Sequence record: KX689784
Reading direction: 5' to 3' (one strand)
Source of the DNA: Escherichia phage JSS1
DNA length: 39,024 bases
In this document: positions 1 through 39,024 of the stretch, piece by piece
Layout: the number at the start of each line of letters is the position of its first letter
Numbering within the stretch: the stretch's first letter is position 1
Position numbers and translations under genes: made by a program
The notes under the pieces: model-generated
What the model was told of the DNA's origin: nothing
Database searches by the model: none
The model's input: the letters and a program-made list of their open reading frames with translations, nothing else

Positions 1-430
1 ATTACAGATAGAGACTCAGAGAAGACCAATAGTCCCAACCTATCGTCCTGACCTCCAGCCATAGCCTAGACCTATCGTCAGGACTATGGGTCAACCTTGA
101 GTCAACGACCTGAAGTTTAGACCGAAGGTCTAGGGGCAGGGCCTTTGGTCTGGACTTAAAGAGGGCCTATGGGGAGACTTGAGGTTCTTGAACTGTGAGA
201 TGTGGTCTCAAACTTTTGGTCCAAAACTCATCGAAGACTGTAGGTGGCAGCTACTGTAGGTCAAGGACCGTAGGTCAGGCGACACTAGGATAGACCAATA
301 AGTAGGATGACCCTAAGTGAGCTTCTATTAAGGTGTTACCTAAAGTCCTTGACCTACAGTAGCTAAGGTCAGTAGAGTGAGTCTTTATCCACGTACTGAC
401 CTTAGGTCTTCCGCTCATGAATCGTTACCA
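1..430. repeat. Non-coding terminal region with dispersed short repeats (GACTGTAGGT / CCGTAGGTC / CCTATCGTC types); likely holds the genome terminus and terminal-repeat sequences
   Basis: No ORF with start and RBS. Motif copies at 236-245, 254-261 and 268-276 continue the array at the window end. Position matches the T7 right-end/left-end non-coding regions. Confidence 0.5.
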
Positions 431-31764: not shown

Positions 31765-31790
31765 AGAGTCTCCTTAGGTCGAAGTTATGG

Positions 31791-31813
31791 GTGTCCTATA
31801 GTGATATCTTAGG
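31791..31813 (-). promoter_or_regulatory. Variant phage promoter (phi1.5/1.6-like)
   Basis: Minus-strand CTAAGATATCACTATAGGACACC: consensus -8 to +2, changes at -12/-11. Confidence 0.5.
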
Positions 31814-31846
31814 GTCTAGCTGGTGGCCCAGACGATAGCTTTCTAG

Positions 31847-34187: not shown

Positions 34188-36869
34188 TTAAGCGAATGCA
34201 AAGTCTGAAGACAAGATGTCTTCGATATTCAGTTTACCTTTCTTCGGAAGCTCAGGCAGCTTGTCGCGCTGACTCTCATGTAGCTGGTATTCAAACTGCT
34301 CGTAGAAGTCAAGCAGCACATCGTTGTCTCGGTAGGTCTCAACCATCGTCTCACGGACGCCACGGAACAGATATTCAGCGTCAGCCGGGATGGTCCCAAA
34401 GCTATCGTGAATCACTGCGAATGACATCACGCCATACTTGCGGTGCGTGTGGACTACAGTCTTGCGGAGGTGGCTACCATCTTGCGAGTGGACGAAATTC
34501 GGGCTAATGCCTGACTCCTGCTTGTGCTTGTCCAGCTCCTTCTTAGTGCCTTTGTTGACTGTAGGCTGAAGGTTGAATGACCCTAGGAACATAAGGTTCA
34601 GACGAGTAGTATCCTTCTTGCGGTATTCCTGCCAGACAGGGAAACCATCAGGTGTGACCCAGTGTACCGGAAGGCAAGGCTTCAGGGTTTCACCAGTCTT
34701 CTTGTCCTTCACCTCAGCAGCCAGCAGCTTGGCAGCACCTTGCAGCCACTTCATCGCGTCAACCGCAGCAACTACGGTCACACTCACAGCTTCCCAAATC
34801 ATCTTAGCCATGAAGCGAGACGCTTGGCTTGGTTCAGTGAACATAGCGCCAGACCCTGAATCAATCGCTGGCATCACGATATCCTCGTAAACTTGGTCTG
34901 CGAAGCCATACTCTTTCGACCCGTAGGCCAGAGTCATGACCGAACGCTTAGTGACCTTGCGTGACATACCGTAGGTCAGCCACTGACGGGCCAGCTCTCG
35001 TGTCCCCAGCTTGAGACGTTCGGTAATCTCACCAGTTTTCTTGTCCTCGTGAGTTACCATCTCGTTGTCCGTACCGTTAACCAGCAGGACTTTAAGCTCC
35101 TCCTCAATGCGGTCGGACACGATGCGGTAGATGTCTTGGACCTTACCGGATGGCGTCAGGTTTACTGCATGTCCACCGATGTGGTCACGAAGCATCGCGC
35201 TGAAGTGCTGAATCCCAGAGCAGGACCCATCGAACGCTATCGGTAGCGAGCAGGAGTAAGACAGGCCGTGGTGCATTACGCCAGCATACTCGAAGCAGAA
35301 CGCAAGGAAGCAGAACGGAGAGTCTAACCTGCCCCACCACTCAATGCTATCCATCGGGGCTTTGGCAGCAGCCATGATGTTGTCGTGGTTGTCTTCCACC
35401 CACTTGATGCGCTCCTCGAAGGTGACTTTATCGACACCCGCACAGTTTGCACCATGGACCTTCAGCCATTTGAAACCATCAGCACCAATAGGCTTACCGA
35501 CTGCCAGAGTCAGGAGACCCTTCTGCATGTCGTTACCCTGAGGGTTGAACATCGGCACAGCGTAGACGCGACCGCGCCAGTCCATGTTGTATGGGAACCA
35601 GATGGCCTTGAACTGAGAGAACTTATTCGCTTGGTTGACGATAAAGCTCAGTGACAATCTGCGTGACTGTCTGGCCTTCTCGCGGCGATAGATGCCAGCA
35701 GCAGCCTTCTTCCATGCCTTGAGTTCCTCCTCGGTCTCACCCGCATAGTCCTCAGGCTTCAGTGGTTCCATCTGAGGGATGTCATCAATAGGCGTATTGT
35801 TCAGCTTCTCTACCATGTTCACCACGTCCAGCACCTTCTTGTTCACTTTCCAAGGTGTATTCTGGATGATGTTTACTGCCTCGTAGACTTCAGGCATATA
35901 CACGTCTTCGTAACGTGCTACCGCAGACTTAGACCCTAAGCGAATCAGTGGTAATGGTCTGCGACCTTTGGCCCAGTACCCACCACCTACGACACCCGTC
36001 CACGGCTTAGGTGGAACGACGCAAGGCTGATAGACTGGCGCAATACCCGCAAGGCTGAATCCACGTTGTGCCATCTTCTTTACCCAGAAGTCTGACAGGT
36101 GGACCATCTCAACATCAGTCGCTGCATTGCCAGCACCGTAACGCTTAAGCTCAACCAGTTGTGTAGACTGGATGACAATCTCAAGCATCTTGATGCCAAC
36201 GTGTACCGCTTCGGTCGGACTCCAAGTACCCCACGCATCTTCCAGTTGACCTTGCTCCAGCATGGAGGTCTCAACCGCTTGCATGTAGGCTTTCTTATAG
36301 GATGCCCCGGCTCGCTTGTTCAGGTTCTCAGCTATCGCCTTCTTGAAGTGCTCCTGCTCCTTGTCACGAATGCGACCGAAGCGGATTTCATCCTCAAGTG
36401 TACGGCCTATCGCGGAGGCCATCGGTGTAATCGGGATACCTTCAGGCTTGACCAGCTTGGAGAGGATGACCTTCAGTATGATGACCGCAGCAGACTCACA
36501 GGAGATGCGCAGAGAGCGGTCCTTTACGGCCTTCTCTTCAGTGCTCAACATGGTGAACGCTACGCTAGGACGAGAGGTTGACAGCTTCCCGTCTGGGCCT
36601 TCATGCCACTCCTTGACGGCTTGCGCAATCTTAGGGACCAGAGTCTGCATCAAAGGTTTGGCGACCTGATTGTCTGCCAGTTCCCCGCGCTCTGTCTGGC
36701 GCTCAAGGTTCTTGATGAAACGTCGCTCGCCTTCAGTGTATGCCTCATGCTCAAGCTGAAGCTGTTTTACTGCAAGGTCCTGCCCGTAGTGGTCGGCCAG
36801 CAGGTTAAACGGCTCAATTGCGTTCGACACGTCAGAGAAGTCGTGTTTGTCAATGGAGATGACGCTCAT
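34188..36869 (-). CDS. 1: DNA-directed RNA polymerase, single subunit (T7 gp1 homolog, 893 aa)
   Basis: Colinear with T7 RNAP (DFSD...PFN.LADHYG, RFGRIRD, PCVVPPKPWTG..GGGYWA.GRRPL, WFPYNMDWRGRVYA, DGSCSGIQHFSAMLRD, NFVHSQDGSHLRKTV, C-terminal FAFA). The segment between LQPT and HKQESGI, where my recollection places the T7 specificity loop, is diverged. Confidence 0.98.
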   Translation of the reverse strand: MSVISIDKHDFSDVSNAIEPFNLLADHYGQDLAVKQLQLEHEAYTEGERRFIKNLERQTERGELADNQVAKPLMQTLVPKIAQAVKEWHEGPDGKLSTSRPSVAFTMLSTEEKAVKDRSLRISCESAAVIILKVILSKLVKPEGIPITPMASAIGRTLEDEIRFGRIRDKEQEHFKKAIAENLNKRAGASYKKAYMQAVETSMLEQGQLEDAWGTWSPTEAVHVGIKMLEIVIQSTQLVELKRYGAGNAATDVEMVHLSDFWVKKMAQRGFSLAGIAPVYQPCVVPPKPWTGVVGGGYWAKGRRPLPLIRLGSKSAVARYEDVYMPEVYEAVNIIQNTPWKVNKKVLDVVNMVEKLNNTPIDDIPQMEPLKPEDYAGETEEELKAWKKAAAGIYRREKARQSRRLSLSFIVNQANKFSQFKAIWFPYNMDWRGRVYAVPMFNPQGNDMQKGLLTLAVGKPIGADGFKWLKVHGANCAGVDKVTFEERIKWVEDNHDNIMAAAKAPMDSIEWWGRLDSPFCFLAFCFEYAGVMHHGLSYSCSLPIAFDGSCSGIQHFSAMLRDHIGGHAVNLTPSGKVQDIYRIVSDRIEEELKVLLVNGTDNEMVTHEDKKTGEITERLKLGTRELARQWLTYGMSRKVTKRSVMTLAYGSKEYGFADQVYEDIVMPAIDSGSGAMFTEPSQASRFMAKMIWEAVSVTVVAAVDAMKWLQGAAKLLAAEVKDKKTGETLKPCLPVHWVTPDGFPVWQEYRKKDTTRLNLMFLGSFNLQPTVNKGTKKELDKHKQESGISPNFVHSQDGSHLRKTVVHTHRKYGVMSFAVIHDSFGTIPADAEYLFRGVRETMVETYRDNDVLLDFYEQFEYQLHESQRDKLPELPKKGKLNIEDILSSDFAFA

Positions 36870-36938
36870 ACTTAAAGTCCTTGTTATTAGTCTTTCACTT
36901 AAAGTCTCTTTGGTCTTTCACTTGGAGTCTTAGACCTT

Positions 36939-36961
36939 GAGTCCTATAGTGATAGTTAAGT
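36939..36961 (-). promoter_or_regulatory. Consensus-class phage RNAP promoter about 75 nt upstream of the RNAP gene
   Basis: Minus-strand ACTTAACTATCACTATAGGACTC, identical over -17 to +2 to the promoters at 747 and 13686. Transcript 5' end contains GACUCAAGGUC. Confidence 0.7.
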
Positions 36962-36966
36962 CAGAA

Positions 36967-37359
36967 TCACTTGCATATCAGTGGGTTAGCGTGAAGATGA
37001 CTGAAGTCACCATGAGTCGTGTGCTTGATGGTTGACCGTTGGTCTATCGCCTTCCAGCCTGAGACCAGAAGTTTACCATCGTCGGTGATCGGTCGTCCAC
37101 CATACGCCAGACACATCAGCTCGGACTTATGGCCCTCGGCCCGGAGTCGTGCCTGTAGTACACGGTCCCGCTCCTGCTGTTGACGTGCGGTGTGTGACGA
37201 GTGGCGATGCACATAAGCAGTCTTGTTCCCGGTCTCCTCCCAGTAGTTGCGACCACGAGAGTCCGTGCCGACGTACTTCCACTCTACGCCGTTCTTATCG
37301 GTGAAGGCGCGTAGCGCTGTGATTTGATCCAGTGCGTGTACCAGATTTGACATATTCAT
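36967..37359 (-). CDS. Hypothetical early protein (130 aa) at the T7 0.6/0.7 position
   Basis: ATG at 37359 in a TAATG overlap with the upstream ORF stop. Too short for a gp0.7-type kinase and no kinase motifs seen. The first ~20 aa loosely resemble my recollection of the T7 gp0.7 N-terminus. Confidence 0.6.
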   Translation of the reverse strand: MNMSNLVHALDQITALRAFTDKNGVEWKYVGTDSRGRNYWEETGNKTAYVHRHSSHTARQQQERDRVLQARLRAEGHKSELMCLAYGGRPITDDGKLLVSGWKAIDQRSTIKHTTHGDFSHLHANPLICK

Positions 37360-37556
37360 TACAGTTTGCTCCCTAAGGTTGCTATATCCCAGACGTTCGC
37401 TAAGTTGCGCATGAATCGTCCGTTAGGTTGACGTACAGTCCAGCGGACCAGACGTACATAGTTTAATTTGTAGACTTTACGCGCTTTGTTGATGTCTCTC
37501 ACCAGCACGTAGGCGATAAGTCCATAGCCTATGGCTATCAATAGTGCAGATATCAT
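37359..37556 (-). CDS. Small early protein (65 aa) with N-terminal transmembrane segment
   Basis: ATG at 37556; hydrophobic N-terminus ISALLIAIGYGLIAYVLV then a basic tail. Confidence 0.5.
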   Translation of the reverse strand: MISALLIAIGYGLIAYVLVRDINKARKVYKLNYVRLVRWTVRQPNGRFMRNLANVWDIATLGSKL

Positions 37557-37568
37557 AGCGATTTCCGT

Positions 37569-37814
37569 TTAATACAGTCGTATATCCCCCAAGCTATCAG
37601 AAAGATGACCGGAGATAAGCATACCCAATGTCCAATACTCATAGATTATCCCGCCAGTCCAATCCACATCAGTAGACCGCGCACGACCCCCTACCGGAGA
37701 GAATATTATGTCCACTGCCAGCCAGCCAAGACGTAGTGCATTCCCATCGACTATGACCGCAGTTAGCCATGACAGAATGATGGCGATGTAAAGTGCGATG
37801 ACTGTAAATTTCAT
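37569..37814 (-). CDS. Small early membrane protein (81 aa)
   Basis: ATG at 37814 with AGGAG RBS; N-terminal hydrophobic helix FTVIALYIAIILSWLTAVIV. Confidence 0.55.
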   Translation of the reverse strand: MKFTVIALYIAIILSWLTAVIVDGNALRLGWLAVDIIFSPVGGRARSTDVDWTGGIIYEYWTLGMLISGHLSDSLGDIRLY

Positions 37815-37882
37815 TAGTTAACTCCTATCAATTTAAGTGATAATCTTTGAGGCCACCTATCAGTTAGCTGACCTCTCGTCTA

Positions 37883-38032
37883 TCACTCAGCGTATAAGCT
37901 GTCGTGTATACGCTTGCGGCCATCATATACCGCTTTCAGGAGACGCATAGCCGCATCATGGTTTAACTGCCCGGTCTTGACCATAAGCCGGGCGTTGGTG
38001 ACGTGGTGCTGGCAGAGACCATAAGTTACCAT
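37883..38032 (-). CDS. 0.4: Small early protein (49 aa), candidate T7 gp0.4 homolog
   Basis: ATG at 38032 in a TGATG overlap with the ocr stop. YGL...AMRLLKAVY...YAE loosely matches my recollection of T7 gp0.4 (YGL...AMAQLKELY...SAE). Below the ORF-track cutoff. Confidence 0.35.
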   Translation of the reverse strand: MVTYGLCQHHVTNARLMVKTGQLNHDAAMRLLKAVYDGRKRIHDSLYAE

Positions 38033-38364
38033 CACTCGTCGCCCTCTTCAGCCTCAAACCAGACGACATCAGAGCTATTAGACACGTCGATATACAGCGC
38101 CTCATAGATGCGAGCTTGCAGTATATGCGTTACGTCCTTGGTCTCAGGCATCAGCCCAGAGTCTTCGAACTCATGGTCTATACCATCAGCAGCCATCACC
38201 GTGAAAATCTCGTGGTAATAGTGCGGAACATTGCCGTCTACGACCTCATGCAGCGCATCGCTGTAGTCGTCACCTTCAGCTATCTTGTCGTACTGAATAC
38301 GCTCGTTAAATGCCTCAACGGTTGCAGCCAGCAGCTCATAGTATGCATTGGCGTTACGTTCCAT
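38032..38364 (-). CDS. ocr: Ocr, DNA-mimic anti-restriction protein (T7 gp0.3 homolog, 110 aa)
   Basis: Strongly acidic and close to T7 Ocr: [45 protein letters not shown] versus T7 [45 protein letters not shown]. First gene after the early promoter region. Confidence 0.93.
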
Positions 38365-38412
38365 AGTTATATCCTCTCAAAGTTAATCGTGTGTGTGTTA
38401 GTGACTATCAGT

Positions 38413-38444
38413 CAGGGCCTTCAGATGTAGACTCAAAGACCCTG
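38413..38444 (-). promoter_or_regulatory. Hairpin upstream of ocr, candidate RNase III site (T7 R0.3 position)
   Basis: Minus-strand RNA CAGGGUCUUUGAG...UGAAGGCCCUG can pair over about 11 bp; it sits in the position of the T7 R0.3 region. Confidence 0.3.
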
Positions 38445-38559
38445 TAGTTAGTCGCTATCGGCGCACATTAAGAGTTTATCCAGATTGTTAAAGAGCATTC
38501 GCGTTGGCTGTCGTCGCCGTGCTATCCCGTTTCAGTGTTGGGACTCACTGTCGTTTCGA

Positions 38560-38597
38560 TGTGGTACATATTACTTTAAGTCGTTACTGCTTGTCAA
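38560..38597 (-). promoter_or_regulatory. Host sigma70-type early promoter (T7 A3-like)
   Basis: Minus-strand TTGACA-18 nt-TAATAT then GTACCACATCGAAACGACAGTGAGTCC, which closely matches the T7 A3 initial transcribed sequence as I recall it. Confidence 0.5.
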
Positions 38598-38849: not shown

Positions 38850-39024
38850 ACTGTAGGTCTCTGACTGTGGGTGTTGGTGTCTTATGGTTGTGACTGTAGG
38901 TTAGTTAGACTGTAGGTACAGCAGGAGTCAATGACTGTAGGTAGTGAGACTGTAGGTTGTAGGACCTATGGTTGTGACTGTAGGTCGGTGAGACTGTAGG
39001 TTGTAGGACTTATGGTTGTTGAGA
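38850..39024. repeat. Array of (GA)CTGTAGGT short direct repeats with a nested ~44 bp higher-order repeat
   Basis: At least 8 copies of CTGTAGGT (one CTGTGGGT) at 14-28 bp spacing. GAGACTGTAGGTTGTAGGAC(C/T)TATGGTTGT occurs at 38946 and 38990. Same motif family as at window positions 236-276. Confidence 0.7.

Follow-up and report, generated by a model that had tools for sequence, protein, structure and literature searches.

Early genes between ocr and the RNA polymerase gene of Escherichia phage JSS1: a probable K1F-like accessory block with a frameshifted gene 0.36

Background

The early region of Escherichia phage JSS1, between ocr and the gene for the phage RNA polymerase, raises the question of what occupies the interval in which T7 carries the gene 0.7 kinase. 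The DNA analysed here, which we refer to as the window, is the whole 39,024-nucleotide stretch of sequence record KX689784. An initial annotation, made from the sequence, noted that a kinase gene was missing and listed four small ORFs in the interval, which it put forward as candidates for new functions. Two questions follow: are these genes new, and does the missing kinase point to a function that they supply in its place?

We report a comparison of the block with its relatives, in which each ORF is placed in a family where one exists, the reading frames are examined for selection and the likely origins of the least familiar protein, gp0.38, are weighed against one another.

Results and Discussion

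Identity of the window and layout of the early region

The KX689784 stretch is 99.98% identical to Escherichia phage PE3-1 (Kayfunavirus), of which it is a permuted and reverse-oriented copy, and the two records differ genome-wide by seven substitutions and one indel. The early-gene region has 99.9% identity to that of PE3-1; over its 1531 nt the sole difference is one extra G in a run of G. We read the interval as the early (class I) block of accessory genes in a K1F-like phage, and the window as essentially phage PE3-1, with a probability of about 0.8. That this is the early region of a T7-group phage was borne out. The ocr and RNA polymerase genes anchor it, and PE3-1, K1F and EcoDS1 have its genes in their annotations. 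The features of the region are collected in Table 1.

Table 1. Features of the early region, in the order of transcription (positions in the window)
Feature	Position	Strand	Basis
Sigma-70-like promoter (TTGACA-18-TAATAT), upstream of ocr	38568..38597	-	Consensus scan, 10/12 positions
Gene 0.3, short-form Ocr DNA mimic, 110 aa; upstream anchor	38032..38364	-	Pfam PF08684 E 2.5e-32; phrog_2568 E 1.2e-52
Gene 0.35, 49 aa, ATG at 38032	37883..38032	-	PHROG cross-hits; BLASTP; pN/pS 0.30
Hairpin between genes 0.35 and 0.36 (gap of 68 nt)	37838..37885	-	RNA fold -17.4 kcal/mol, z -2.6
81-aa ORF, gene 0.36 disrupted by +1 G	37569..37814	-	One-base insertion relative to PE3-1
G5 homopolymer (C5 on + strand), site of the inserted base	37687..37691	-	Comparison with PE3-1 and relatives
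Fifth gene, 29-aa hydrophobic peptide (MSIGHWVCLSPVIFLIAWGIYDCIKRKSL)	37553..37642	-	Own ATG and intact ORF, 18 related loci
Gene 0.37 (labelled '0.6' in PE3-1 and EcoDS1), 65 aa	37359..37556	-	phrog_2385 E 1.9e-31
Gene 0.38, 130 aa, soluble	36967..37359	-	phrog_7066 E 3.5e-46, residues 44-130
Phage-RNAP promoter (TTAACTATCACTATAGGACTCAA), gap between genes 0.38 and 1	36937..36959	-	One of nine CACTATAGG sites
Gene 1, T7-type single-subunit RNA polymerase, 893 aa; downstream anchor	34188..36869	-	gp1 in PE3-1, K1F, EcoDS1

The order 0.3, 0.35, 0.36, 0.37/'0.6', 0.38, 1 is the same in PE3-1, K1F and EcoDS1, with an identity to the window of 99.9-100% for the early block of PE3-1 and of 77-93% for the proteins of K1F and EcoDS1. 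The window differs from all three in that its gene 0.36 is frameshifted by one extra G; its Ocr, 53% identical to that of T7, is also the short form, whereas K1F has one of 169 aa. The genes held to be candidates for new functions are thus known genes of K1F, EcoDS1 and PE3-1, namely 0.35, 0.36, 0.37 ('0.6') and 0.38, annotated since 2005-2014, and GenBank already annotates every gene of the block except a 29-aa ORF. The ORFs of 49, 81, 65 and 130 aa do lie where they had been placed, but the count of four genes has to be revised to five, because the 81-aa ORF is a frameshifted gene and the 29-aa gene had been missed. Judged by their substitutions, with pN/pS of 0.19-0.30 in frame as against 0.6-5.5 in the two other frames, the block genes are more than chance ORFs, every one of them under purifying selection. 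Sequence searches of all block proteins against Pfam, NCBIfam and the PDB returned nothing above threshold besides ocr, and a literature search for a function of gp0.35-0.38 or of T3-type gp0.6 found nothing.

The 81-aa ORF and the 29-aa gene within it

The extra base makes a G5 run of what is G4 in PE3-1 and is the sole indel across 39 kb. In its normal form gene 0.36 encodes 55 aa with two hydrophobic segments, and the eight relatives compared all keep the 55 aa, with the ending ...SPVG[VI]VRG.L.W.GL.G and two to four G in the run. The profile of the K1F gp0.36 family, phrog_7319, matches residues 1-54 of the 55-aa PE3-1 form but only residues 1-42 of the 81-aa ORF; residues 43-81 are out of frame and overlie the next gene, and by hydropathy the second segment is lost, such that the window holds no intact two-segment ORF of about 55 aa. 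The 81-aa membrane protein proposed initially is, on this comparison, a frameshift product, and the ORF is best regarded as a chimera that corresponds to no natural protein. The added G would create this ORF, and ribosomes translating it would pass over the start codon of the 29-aa gene.

It is very improbable that the 81-aa ORF is instead a real and functional extended protein, one that either evolved as a variant or arises by programmed frameshifting. In its favour, the reading frame is open in this sequence, with a good Shine-Dalgarno sequence (TAGGAG), and the extra G on which it depends has no second indel beside it in the 39 kb, but residues 43-81 lie in a frame with a pN/pS of 1.45 across the 29-aa gene, stop codons interrupt that frame in two relatives (L007 and L017) and no relative shows such a reading. 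The extension also destroys the second hydrophobic segment of gp0.36, and five G make a short run for programmed slippage. The frameshift itself is either a real knockout of gene 0.36 or a homopolymer sequencing error; with no other indel in 39 kb to suggest generally noisy sequencing, a real mutation may be the cause.

The fifth gene, whose stop codon and the ATG of the 65-aa gene run into each other (ATGA), encodes a peptide with a KD hydropathy of 1.82. Among the related loci 27 of 27 third codon positions are variable, compared with 12 first and 8 second positions, and pN/pS is 0.29 in frame as against 1.4 in the other frames. Phages Baskent_phicoli_1 and EPr2 have the gene annotated as a CDS, whereas it is unannotated in PE3-1, K1F and EcoDS1, the last of which annotates the wrong frame at this position; a conserved gene for a putative membrane peptide is accordingly absent from several reference annotations. 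From their hydropathy, gp0.36, the 29-aa peptide and gp0.37 are probably all small inner-membrane proteins.

Gene 0.35 is related to T7 gene 0.4

The initial annotation had described the 49-aa ORF as gp0.4-like and coupled to ocr, and both parts of this description stood. The ATG of gene 0.35 and the stop codon of ocr have one base in common (TGATG), the same 1-nt overlap as in T7, in which 0.3 ends and 0.4 begins at one base, 1278. Cross-hits in PHROG are reciprocal, the window protein matching phrog_7202 (7.9e-5) and T7 Gp0.4 matching phrog_5058 (9e-5), and both of these families also match phrog_25044; a direct BLASTP alignment of the two proteins, which are 49 and 51 aa long and both end in AE, gives 39% identity over 41 aa (E 5e-6). 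By these alignments we take gp0.35 to be remotely homologous to Gp0.4, the FtsZ inhibitor of T7.

T7 Gp0.4 inhibits FtsZ polymerisation (Kiro et al. 2013; PMC13423816), for which V15, V22, W28, M32, L35 and Y39 are each required (PMC13423816). Five of these six residues (V15, V22, M32, L35 and Y39) are identical in gp0.35, the sixth, W28, being replaced by His, and the positions of the FtsZ face are invariant or near-invariant in 19 unique members of the gp0.35 family. K1F infection is known to block division and to mislocalise FtsZ (PMC9372555). On homology, gp0.35 would be a two-helix peptide of the Gp0.4 family that most likely binds FtsZ and blocks division, although its binding could be weakened or retargeted, because the required W28 is not conserved. 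The residues through which T7 Gp0.4 contacts the CapRel(Ebc) sensor are all changed in gp0.35 (A12Q, T14H, L16T, S19R and R23K), and since all five differ the protein may evade the CapRel(Ebc) defence. More speculatively, it could represent an immune-evasion variant of Gp0.4, in which the FtsZ face has been kept and every CapRel(Ebc) contact altered, and whether it combines FtsZ inhibition with escape from CapRel-type sensing deserves an experiment.

Gene 0.37 belongs to the T3-type 0.6 family

The 65-aa protein was predicted at the outset to carry an N-terminal transmembrane helix, and a hydropathy peak (KD 2.27) at residues 2-18 agrees with this; a basic tail is the other feature of the protein, and the pN/pS of its gene is 0.29. 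BLASTP places gp0.37 within the family of T3 gp0.6 and BA14 gp0.6A, with E values from 4e-9 to 4e-12 (42% identity over 60 aa to T3 gp0.6, E 4e-9; 43% to a 65-aa Przondovirus protein; 39-43% over the three). All three are likewise 65 aa long, with an N-terminal transmembrane helix and the motif R[FW]TVR.PNGRF, and their genes, like gene 0.37, lie in the early region after genes of the 0.3/0.4 type. On this evidence gp0.37 can be assigned as the T3 gp0.6 orthologue and a member of the T3 gp0.6 / BA14 gp0.6A family, which tblastn finds in 608 phage records and which is widespread, also in phages that carry the kinase. What follows the 0.6-type gene differs: T3, BA14 and Przondovirus have 0.65 and/or the 0.7 kinase there, whereas the window has gp0.38 instead.

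The label '0.6' calls for some care. BLASTP of the ORFs of the region against T7 gp0.6A, the MreB inhibitor, and T7 gp0.5 gave no match, and the PHROG families are 8393 and 16572 for T7 gp0.6A/gp0.5 and 2385, 7319 and none for the ORFs of the region. The label denotes a T3-type 0.6 that is unrelated to T7 gp0.6A despite the shared number. The initial annotation had held that clear homology to characterised T7 0.5/0.6 proteins, with no added function, would count against new functions. This applies in part: the 49-aa protein has its homologue in T7 Gp0.4, which is characterised, and the 65-aa protein in T3 gp0.6, which is not.

The missing kinase and the claim of novelty

The 0.7 kinase is indeed absent, as had been noted: tblastn finds no gp0.7 homologue in the whole window (best E 0.41), and a profile built from four gp0.7 sequences retrieves nothing below E 5 from the same 39 kb. 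A 'protein kinase' of phage IME177 that lies under the match is a mislabelled long ocr gene. K1F is also without gene 0.7, both in its GenBank annotation and in our searches. Close relatives, on the other hand, carry gp0.38 together with a short, kinase-only gp0.7 of 244-254 aa, without the C-terminal domain, and this short kinase occupies the slot of gene 0.36, alongside the 29-aa, 65-aa and gp0.38 genes. The absence of the kinase is no clean genus trait; the window has none because, in its lineage, gene 0.36 fills the variable slot that separates 0.35 from the 29-aa gene. Relatives keep the 29-aa, 65-aa and gp0.38 genes beside their short kinase, and the missing kinase loses its value as a pointer to a replacement function; kinases accompany both gp0.38 and the gp0.37 family elsewhere, so that these do not compensate for its loss. 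With the gp0.7 of T7 and T3, a Ser/Thr kinase plus a host shut-off domain, the only shared feature is the place in the early region upstream of gene 1, and even the truncated kinase of the relatives sits in another slot than T7/T3 gp0.7, upstream of the 0.6 homologue.

That the block replaces the kinase by four intact and novel proteins for host takeover or anti-defence is, then, unlikely. The early position adjoining ocr, the want of a Pfam, NCBIfam or PDB match for any of the proteins and the orphan status of gp0.38 all speak for it, but a frameshift has made a chimera of one of them, the families of all four have been annotated since the genomes of K1F, EcoDS1 and PE3-1, gp0.35 and gp0.37 have T7/T3 homologues, and the gp0.37 family and gp0.38 are found alongside kinases in other phages. 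The genes themselves, the absence of a kinase and the labels of unknown function were all already public in the PE3-1, K1F and EcoDS1 records. As a discovery the result is small, and what novelty may remain lies with gp0.38 and the small predicted membrane peptides; its use lies in the corrections to the frameshifted ORF, the unannotated 29-aa gene, the '0.6' label and the kinase slot, which is swappable.

Gene 0.38 encodes an orphan protein

The remote homology search and structure prediction recommended at the outset gave T7/T3 homologues for gp0.35 and gp0.37 and left gp0.38 without relatives. This 130-aa protein had been called soluble and devoid of kinase similarity, and both stood; by hhalign it matches neither gp0.7 domain. 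Its gene starts with a 1-nt overlap of the gene 0.37 stop (TAATG) and encodes a protein in which residues 1-45 form an N-terminal module that varies and residues 46-130 a C-terminal domain that is conserved. The motifs of K1F gp0.38 (phrog_7066), YGG.P.TDDGKLL and HT..GDF.HL, are present, and an alignment of 130 sequences contains invariant and near-invariant columns. Homologues number 139, all on phage-sized contigs, and a profile search yields only 14 clusters among 1.84 billion representatives. A first AF2 model, from 20 sequences, was unusable (pLDDT 54); with the 130-sequence alignment the mean pLDDT rises to 77, and residues 60-110 exceed 90, so that the core can be predicted with confidence to be helical. 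Comparison of the predicted fold with known structures gave no match. The protein thus forms a narrow, Kayfunavirus-restricted orphan family with no relative in sequence or fold and, being under strong purifying selection, deserves an experiment.

The most constrained segment of gp0.38 is its tail (residues 111-130; pN/pS 0.16, pS normal), for which the pLDDT is only 51-70, a low value that may just reflect limited information, the alignment having an Neff of 2.6. Strong conservation combined with low model confidence is the reason for which we infer that this invariant, poorly ordered tail (HTTxGDFSHLHxNPLI) may be a docking motif for a host protein. A bolder and decidedly speculative proposal is that gp0.38 is a takeover effector restricted to K1F-like phages, with a tail that docks onto an essential host protein (RNA polymerase, for example) and so supplies shut-off; gp0.38 would then do the job that the C-terminal domain of gp0.7 does in T7, with no sequence relationship between the two.

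Two genealogies for gp0.38 may be weighed here. A diverged relative of T3 gp0.65 and of a 77-aa Przondovirus protein, the genes for which follow 0.6, is possible though doubtful: the position is the same, in overlap with the last bases of the 0.6 homologue, both families have the motif K..[LM]..[ML][AP]YG[GA] and hhalign aligns 47-53 columns at E 0.0025-0.003, but with a probability of only 10-12%, and the profile search of 1.84 billion proteins with gp0.38 did not recover the family. As T3 gp0.65 is itself uncharacterised, such a link would reveal no function. Much less probable is a detached shut-off domain of gp0.7, acting on host transcription and kept immediately upstream of gene 1 after the kinase was lost. 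Gene 0.38 does lie directly 5' of gene 1, as does the 3' part of T7 gene 0.7, the relatives pair gp0.38 with a kinase-only gp0.7 (244-254 aa), and by HMM gp0.38 aligns, weakly though colinearly, with residues 265-328 of T7 gp0.7 (2.4 bits). A query with the C-terminal domain of T7 gp0.7 returned 9 close fragments only, and 78 gp0.7 genes were hence taken from IMG/VR; against the C-terminal domains of these 78 the hhalign probability is 0.6%, and against four full-length gp0.7 proteins 0.2%, on which we reject the proposal. A derivation of the gp0.38 N-terminus from that of gp0.7 is unproven, with no similarity to the gp0.7 N-termini of T3, BA14 and Klebsiella phages or to the short kinase of the relatives. 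For MNMSNLVHALDQITAL of gp0.38 and MNITDIMNAIDAIKAL of T7, the match beats all but 6 of 20000 shuffles.

Transcription and translation of the block

If T7, T3 and EcoDS1 are a guide, the block would be transcribed by host RNA polymerase, from promoters upstream of ocr. The sigma-70-like sequence found there is a candidate host-RNAP early promoter, and EcoDS1 has three annotated host promoters at its position. The hairpin between genes 0.35 and 0.36, which 2 of 200 shuffles equalled in stability, matched no family in an Rfam scan of the early region; it is positioned like T7 R0.5 and may be an RNase III processing site. Translation would proceed in two tightly coupled groups, ocr-0.35 and 0.36-(29-aa gene)-0.37-0.38. 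The CACTATAGG sites, nine in number as against 0.2 expected, all lie on the minus strand, and EcoDS1 has an equivalent of the one before gene 1, annotated 'phi'.

Identity of the early block

All of the long ORFs of the window lie on the minus strand; at its right end are ocr, a number of small ORFs and a T7-type RNA polymerase of 893 aa. Across 1.5 kb around this early block the identity is 99.9% to Escherichia phage PE3-1 (Kayfunavirus, Studiervirinae) and 88-93% to K1F, EcoDS1, SH3 and many further K1F-like phages. The complete PE3-1 record and the window are circularly permuted, reverse-complemented copies of one another, differing by seven substitutions and one indel over 39 kb; the reverse strand of the window begins at PE3-1 position 812 and its final 738 nt map to PE3-1 1-738, while PE3-1 739-811 is without a counterpart in the alignment. 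The early block therefore belongs to a published, annotated genome, and it is a known early cassette of the K1F-like phages, whose functions are predicted at most.

One of the substitutions, at 31807, falls within a phage-promoter-like site and creates a second mismatch to the promoter consensus ctaaactatCACTATAGG; PE3-1 carries C at this position. The window contains 14 copies of the 9-mer ACTGTAGGT, where 0.5 would be expected, and the two clusters of this 9-mer, which sit either side of the permutation point, are probably short repeat arrays beside the terminal repeat or concatemer junction.

Features of the early block and related loci (coordinates refer to the window unless a phage or locus is named)
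Feature	Location	Strand	Remark
49-aa ORF (gene 0.35)	37883-38032	-	
81-aa ORF (gene 0.36 region)	37569-37814	-	
29-aa ORF MSIGHWVCLSPVIFLIAWGIYDCIKRKSL	37553-37642	-	fifth gene, beneath the tail of the 81-aa ORF
65-aa ORF (gene 0.37)	37359-37556	-	
130-aa ORF (gene 0.38)	36967-37359	-	
Short ocr (110 aa)	38032-38364; also EcoDS1		
Long ocr (~169 aa)	K1F (L002 1114-1623), SH3, EPr2, SAKp10309		
ocr-leader hairpin	38365-38470	-	-26.6 kcal/mol, z -2.6
Phage promoter TTAACTATCACTATAGGACTCAA	between gene 0.38 and gene 1	coding	23 nt
Promoter-like site ctaagAtatCACTATAGG	31789-31817	-	contains substitution 31807
Substitutions relative to PE3-1	31807, 26188, 21366, 19220, 14667, 13837, 6404		n=7
ACTGTAGGT clusters	38850-39001; 237-261	+	7 and 2 copies
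NL[VIA]HA[LM]D motif	37312-37359; P0132; ORF upstream of the kinase in L115	- (window)	
Short, kinase-only gp0.7	related loci L020 1675-2439, L034 2001-2735; also L021, L023, L024, L026-L029		

Five early genes, one of them broken

The initial annotation described four small ORFs, of 49, 81, 65 and 130 aa, and all four are present in the ORF listing of the window where it placed them. The ratio pN/pS is 0.19-0.30 in frame, against 0.6-5.5 in the two alternative frames (6-26 unique homologues), and the early ORFs are therefore real genes. The count of four, however, overlooked a 29-aa gene; 18 related loci preserve it intact, with a separate ATG and a stop that overlaps the start of the gene that follows. 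Among its codons all 27 third positions vary, compared with 12 of the first and 8 of the second, and its pN/pS is 0.29 when read in frame and 1.4 in the remaining two frames; the frame in which the 81-aa ORF crosses it contains stop codons in two relatives. This gene is annotated in phages Baskent_phicoli_1 and EPr2 and lacks annotation in PE3-1 and K1F, and EcoDS1 has an 'unknown product' CDS (1493-1636) called in the wrong frame, with the conserved 29-aa ORF in another frame at 1563-1652. In one IMG/VR relative (L030, 2600-2740) a deletion has produced an in-frame fusion of the 29-aa ORF with the C-terminal portion of the 65-aa gene (MSVGYLVCLSPVIFLIAWGIYDCIKRKSRFMCNLANVWDI...).

Hydropathy supports the N-terminal transmembrane segments that had been ascribed to the 81- and 65-aa ORFs, and finds none in the 49- and 130-aa proteins, but the 81-aa ORF arises from a frameshift, and no evolved gene corresponds to it. 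An extra G in the G-run at 37687-37691 is the sole difference from PE3-1 in the early region and the sole indel genome-wide. In PE3-1, K1F and six other relatives the equivalent run is two to four G long and gp0.36 is a 55-aa protein with two hydrophobic segments, ending ...SPVG[VI]VRG.L.W.GL.G; the phrog_7319 profile matches the whole of the PE3-1 protein, as against residues 1-42 only of the 81-aa ORF. Downstream of the extra G this ORF reads out of frame across a 3-nt gap and into the 29-aa ORF, terminating 16 nt ahead of the gene 0.37 start. The extra G is either a real mutation or a homopolymer error, and the sequence alone fits either. If it is real, ribosomes on the 81-aa ORF would run across the start of the 29-aa gene, so that translation of the 29-aa peptide may be lowered. 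The region therefore contains five genes, one of them broken, and the original description holds in part.

Relatives of gp0.35 and gp0.37 in T7 and T3

The 49-aa protein had been called gp0.4-like, and this is borne out by reciprocal PHROG matches (gp0.35: 5058 best, then 7202 at 7.9e-5 and 25044; T7 Gp0.4: 7202 best, 5058 at 9e-5) and by direct BLASTP to T7 Gp0.4 (39% identity, 41 aa, E 5e-6). The toxicity of Gp0.4 is abolished by a single alanine at V15, V22, W28, M32, L35 or Y39 (PMC13423816). The 49-aa protein retains five of the six unchanged, W28 aligning with His25, and the six equivalent positions are invariant or near-invariant among 19 unique gp0.35 sequences. All five Gp0.4 residues that contact the CapRel(Ebc) sensor (PMC13423816) are different. 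Infection by K1F blocks division and mislocalises FtsZ (PMC9372555). Homology places gp0.35 in the Gp0.4 family and makes it a probable FtsZ inhibitor.

The 65-aa protein gp0.37, labelled '0.6' in PE3-1 and EcoDS1, is 39-43% identical to T3 gp0.6, BA14 gp0.6A and a Przondovirus 65-aa protein, with which it shares its length, the N-terminal transmembrane helix and the motif R[FW]TVR.PNGRF; neither the MreB inhibitor T7 gp0.6A nor T7 gp0.5 is related to it. The family occurs in 608 phage records (tblastn), the majority being kinase-bearing Klebsiella phages, and we found no report of its function in the literature. A 0.4-0.5 kb insert separates the 65-aa gene from gene 0.38 in Baskent_phicoli_1 (L007, 2065-2490) and in L014, L023, L027 and L029; it is probably a mobile endonuclease, because it is annotated as endonuclease VII in Baskent_phicoli_1. 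The ocr gene of the group has two forms, short and long, the latter with an acidic C-terminal extension.

The missing kinase and a swappable slot

The absence of a gp0.7 kinase is upheld across the entire window, where four gp0.7 proteins gave a best tblastn E of 0.41 and a gp0.7 profile HMM found nothing below E 5 among all six-frame ORFs. The annotated records of K1F, EcoDS1 and PE3-1 are likewise without a kinase; a 'protein kinase' label in phage IME177 (L005, 1537-2040) is a misannotation of its long ocr gene. The group as a whole is nevertheless mixed in this respect: searching with the 65-aa protein recovered 22 IMG/VR relatives, of which 8 encode a gp0.7-like kinase domain (39-42% identity, ~200 aa), as does Klebsiella phage SAKp10309, and a close copy of this short kinase is found in about 44 phage records. 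It is 244-254 aa long and lacks the T7 C-terminal shut-off domain. Its gene is not adjacent to gene 1 but upstream of the 0.6 homologue, flanked on one side by gene 0.35 (or a SAMase gene) and on the other by the 29-aa/65-aa genes. This is the slot of gene 0.36 in the window; its content varies among phages, being gene 0.36, an ORF of 115 or of 41 aa, the kinase, or no gene. It is a cassette that can be swapped, and the absence of the kinase is one of its states, reflecting cassette exchange; a missing kinase is not in itself evidence of a replacement function, and the phages with the short kinase also encode gp0.38. The suggestion that the small ORFs are candidates for new functions is partly supported: it is weakened by this exchange and by the T7 and T3 homologues of the 49- and 65-aa proteins, but retains some support from the orphan gp0.38.

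The orphan protein gp0.38

Searched with a gp0.38 profile, 1.84 billion representative proteins yielded only 14 clusters, and tblastn returned 223 phage records; all 139 homologues lie on phage-sized contigs and are without a Pfam domain. Family lengths range over 83-139 aa, with a modular N-terminus and a conserved portion at residues 46-130. The AF2 model (130 sequences; mean pLDDT 77) has helices at 55-74, 78-85 and 93-110, all above pLDDT 90, a small beta-hairpin in the N-terminal module and a final 20 residues at pLDDT 51-70. Within this tail T114, G117 and F119 are invariant and H113, D118, H121, L122 and H123 near-invariant, and its pN/pS of 0.16 is the lowest of the protein at an ordinary synonymous rate; the constraint is therefore on the protein and not the DNA.

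That gp0.38 might be a detached shut-off domain of gp0.7 is rejected, since the hhalign probability is 0.2% for four full-length gp0.7 proteins and 0.6% for a set of 78 C-terminal domains collected from IMG/VR. Comparison with the family of T3 gp0.65 and the Przondovirus 77-aa protein, encoded after the 0.6 homologue in those phages, gives 10-12% (E 0.0025) and the common motif K..[LM]..[ML][AP]YG[GA], which may hint at a relationship and no more. The protein is still a genuine orphan, its C-terminal tail under strong constraint, and it is the single element of the block that deserves experiment. Separately, otherwise unrelated early proteins begin with the motif NL[VIA]HA[LM]D, namely P0132, the long forms of gp0.38 and, in L115, an ORF that is a gp0.4-like fusion. 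The motif is similar to the start of T7 gp0.7 (equal score in 6/20000 shuffles) and matches none of the other gp0.7 N-termini compared (T3, BA14, Klebsiella phages and the short kinase of relatives).

Gene junctions and regulatory signals

The ocr stop and the ATG of the 49-aa ORF have one base in common (TGATG), as in T7 0.3/0.4, which agrees with the coupling to ocr initially described. The remaining junctions are a 3-nt gap in the native frame (0.36/29-aa gene), ATGA (29-aa gene/0.37) and TAATG (0.37/0.38), and such overlaps and short gaps indicate translational coupling of the early genes, as read from their arrangement. Upstream of ocr lies one strong sigma-70-like site. Two intergenic hairpins, upstream of ocr and between 0.35 and 0.36, are more stable than shuffles (z about -2.6); T7 and T3 have RNase III sites at these places, the ocr-leader hairpin occupying the R0.3 position, and by analogy both are candidate RNase III sites. 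There are nine sites of the TTAACTATCACTATAGGACTCAA type in the window, all on the coding strand. The one before gene 1 is labelled 'phi' in EcoDS1 and 'host RNAP promoter' in PE3-1 (L001, 2874-2896), and the latter label, on a phage promoter, is an annotation error.
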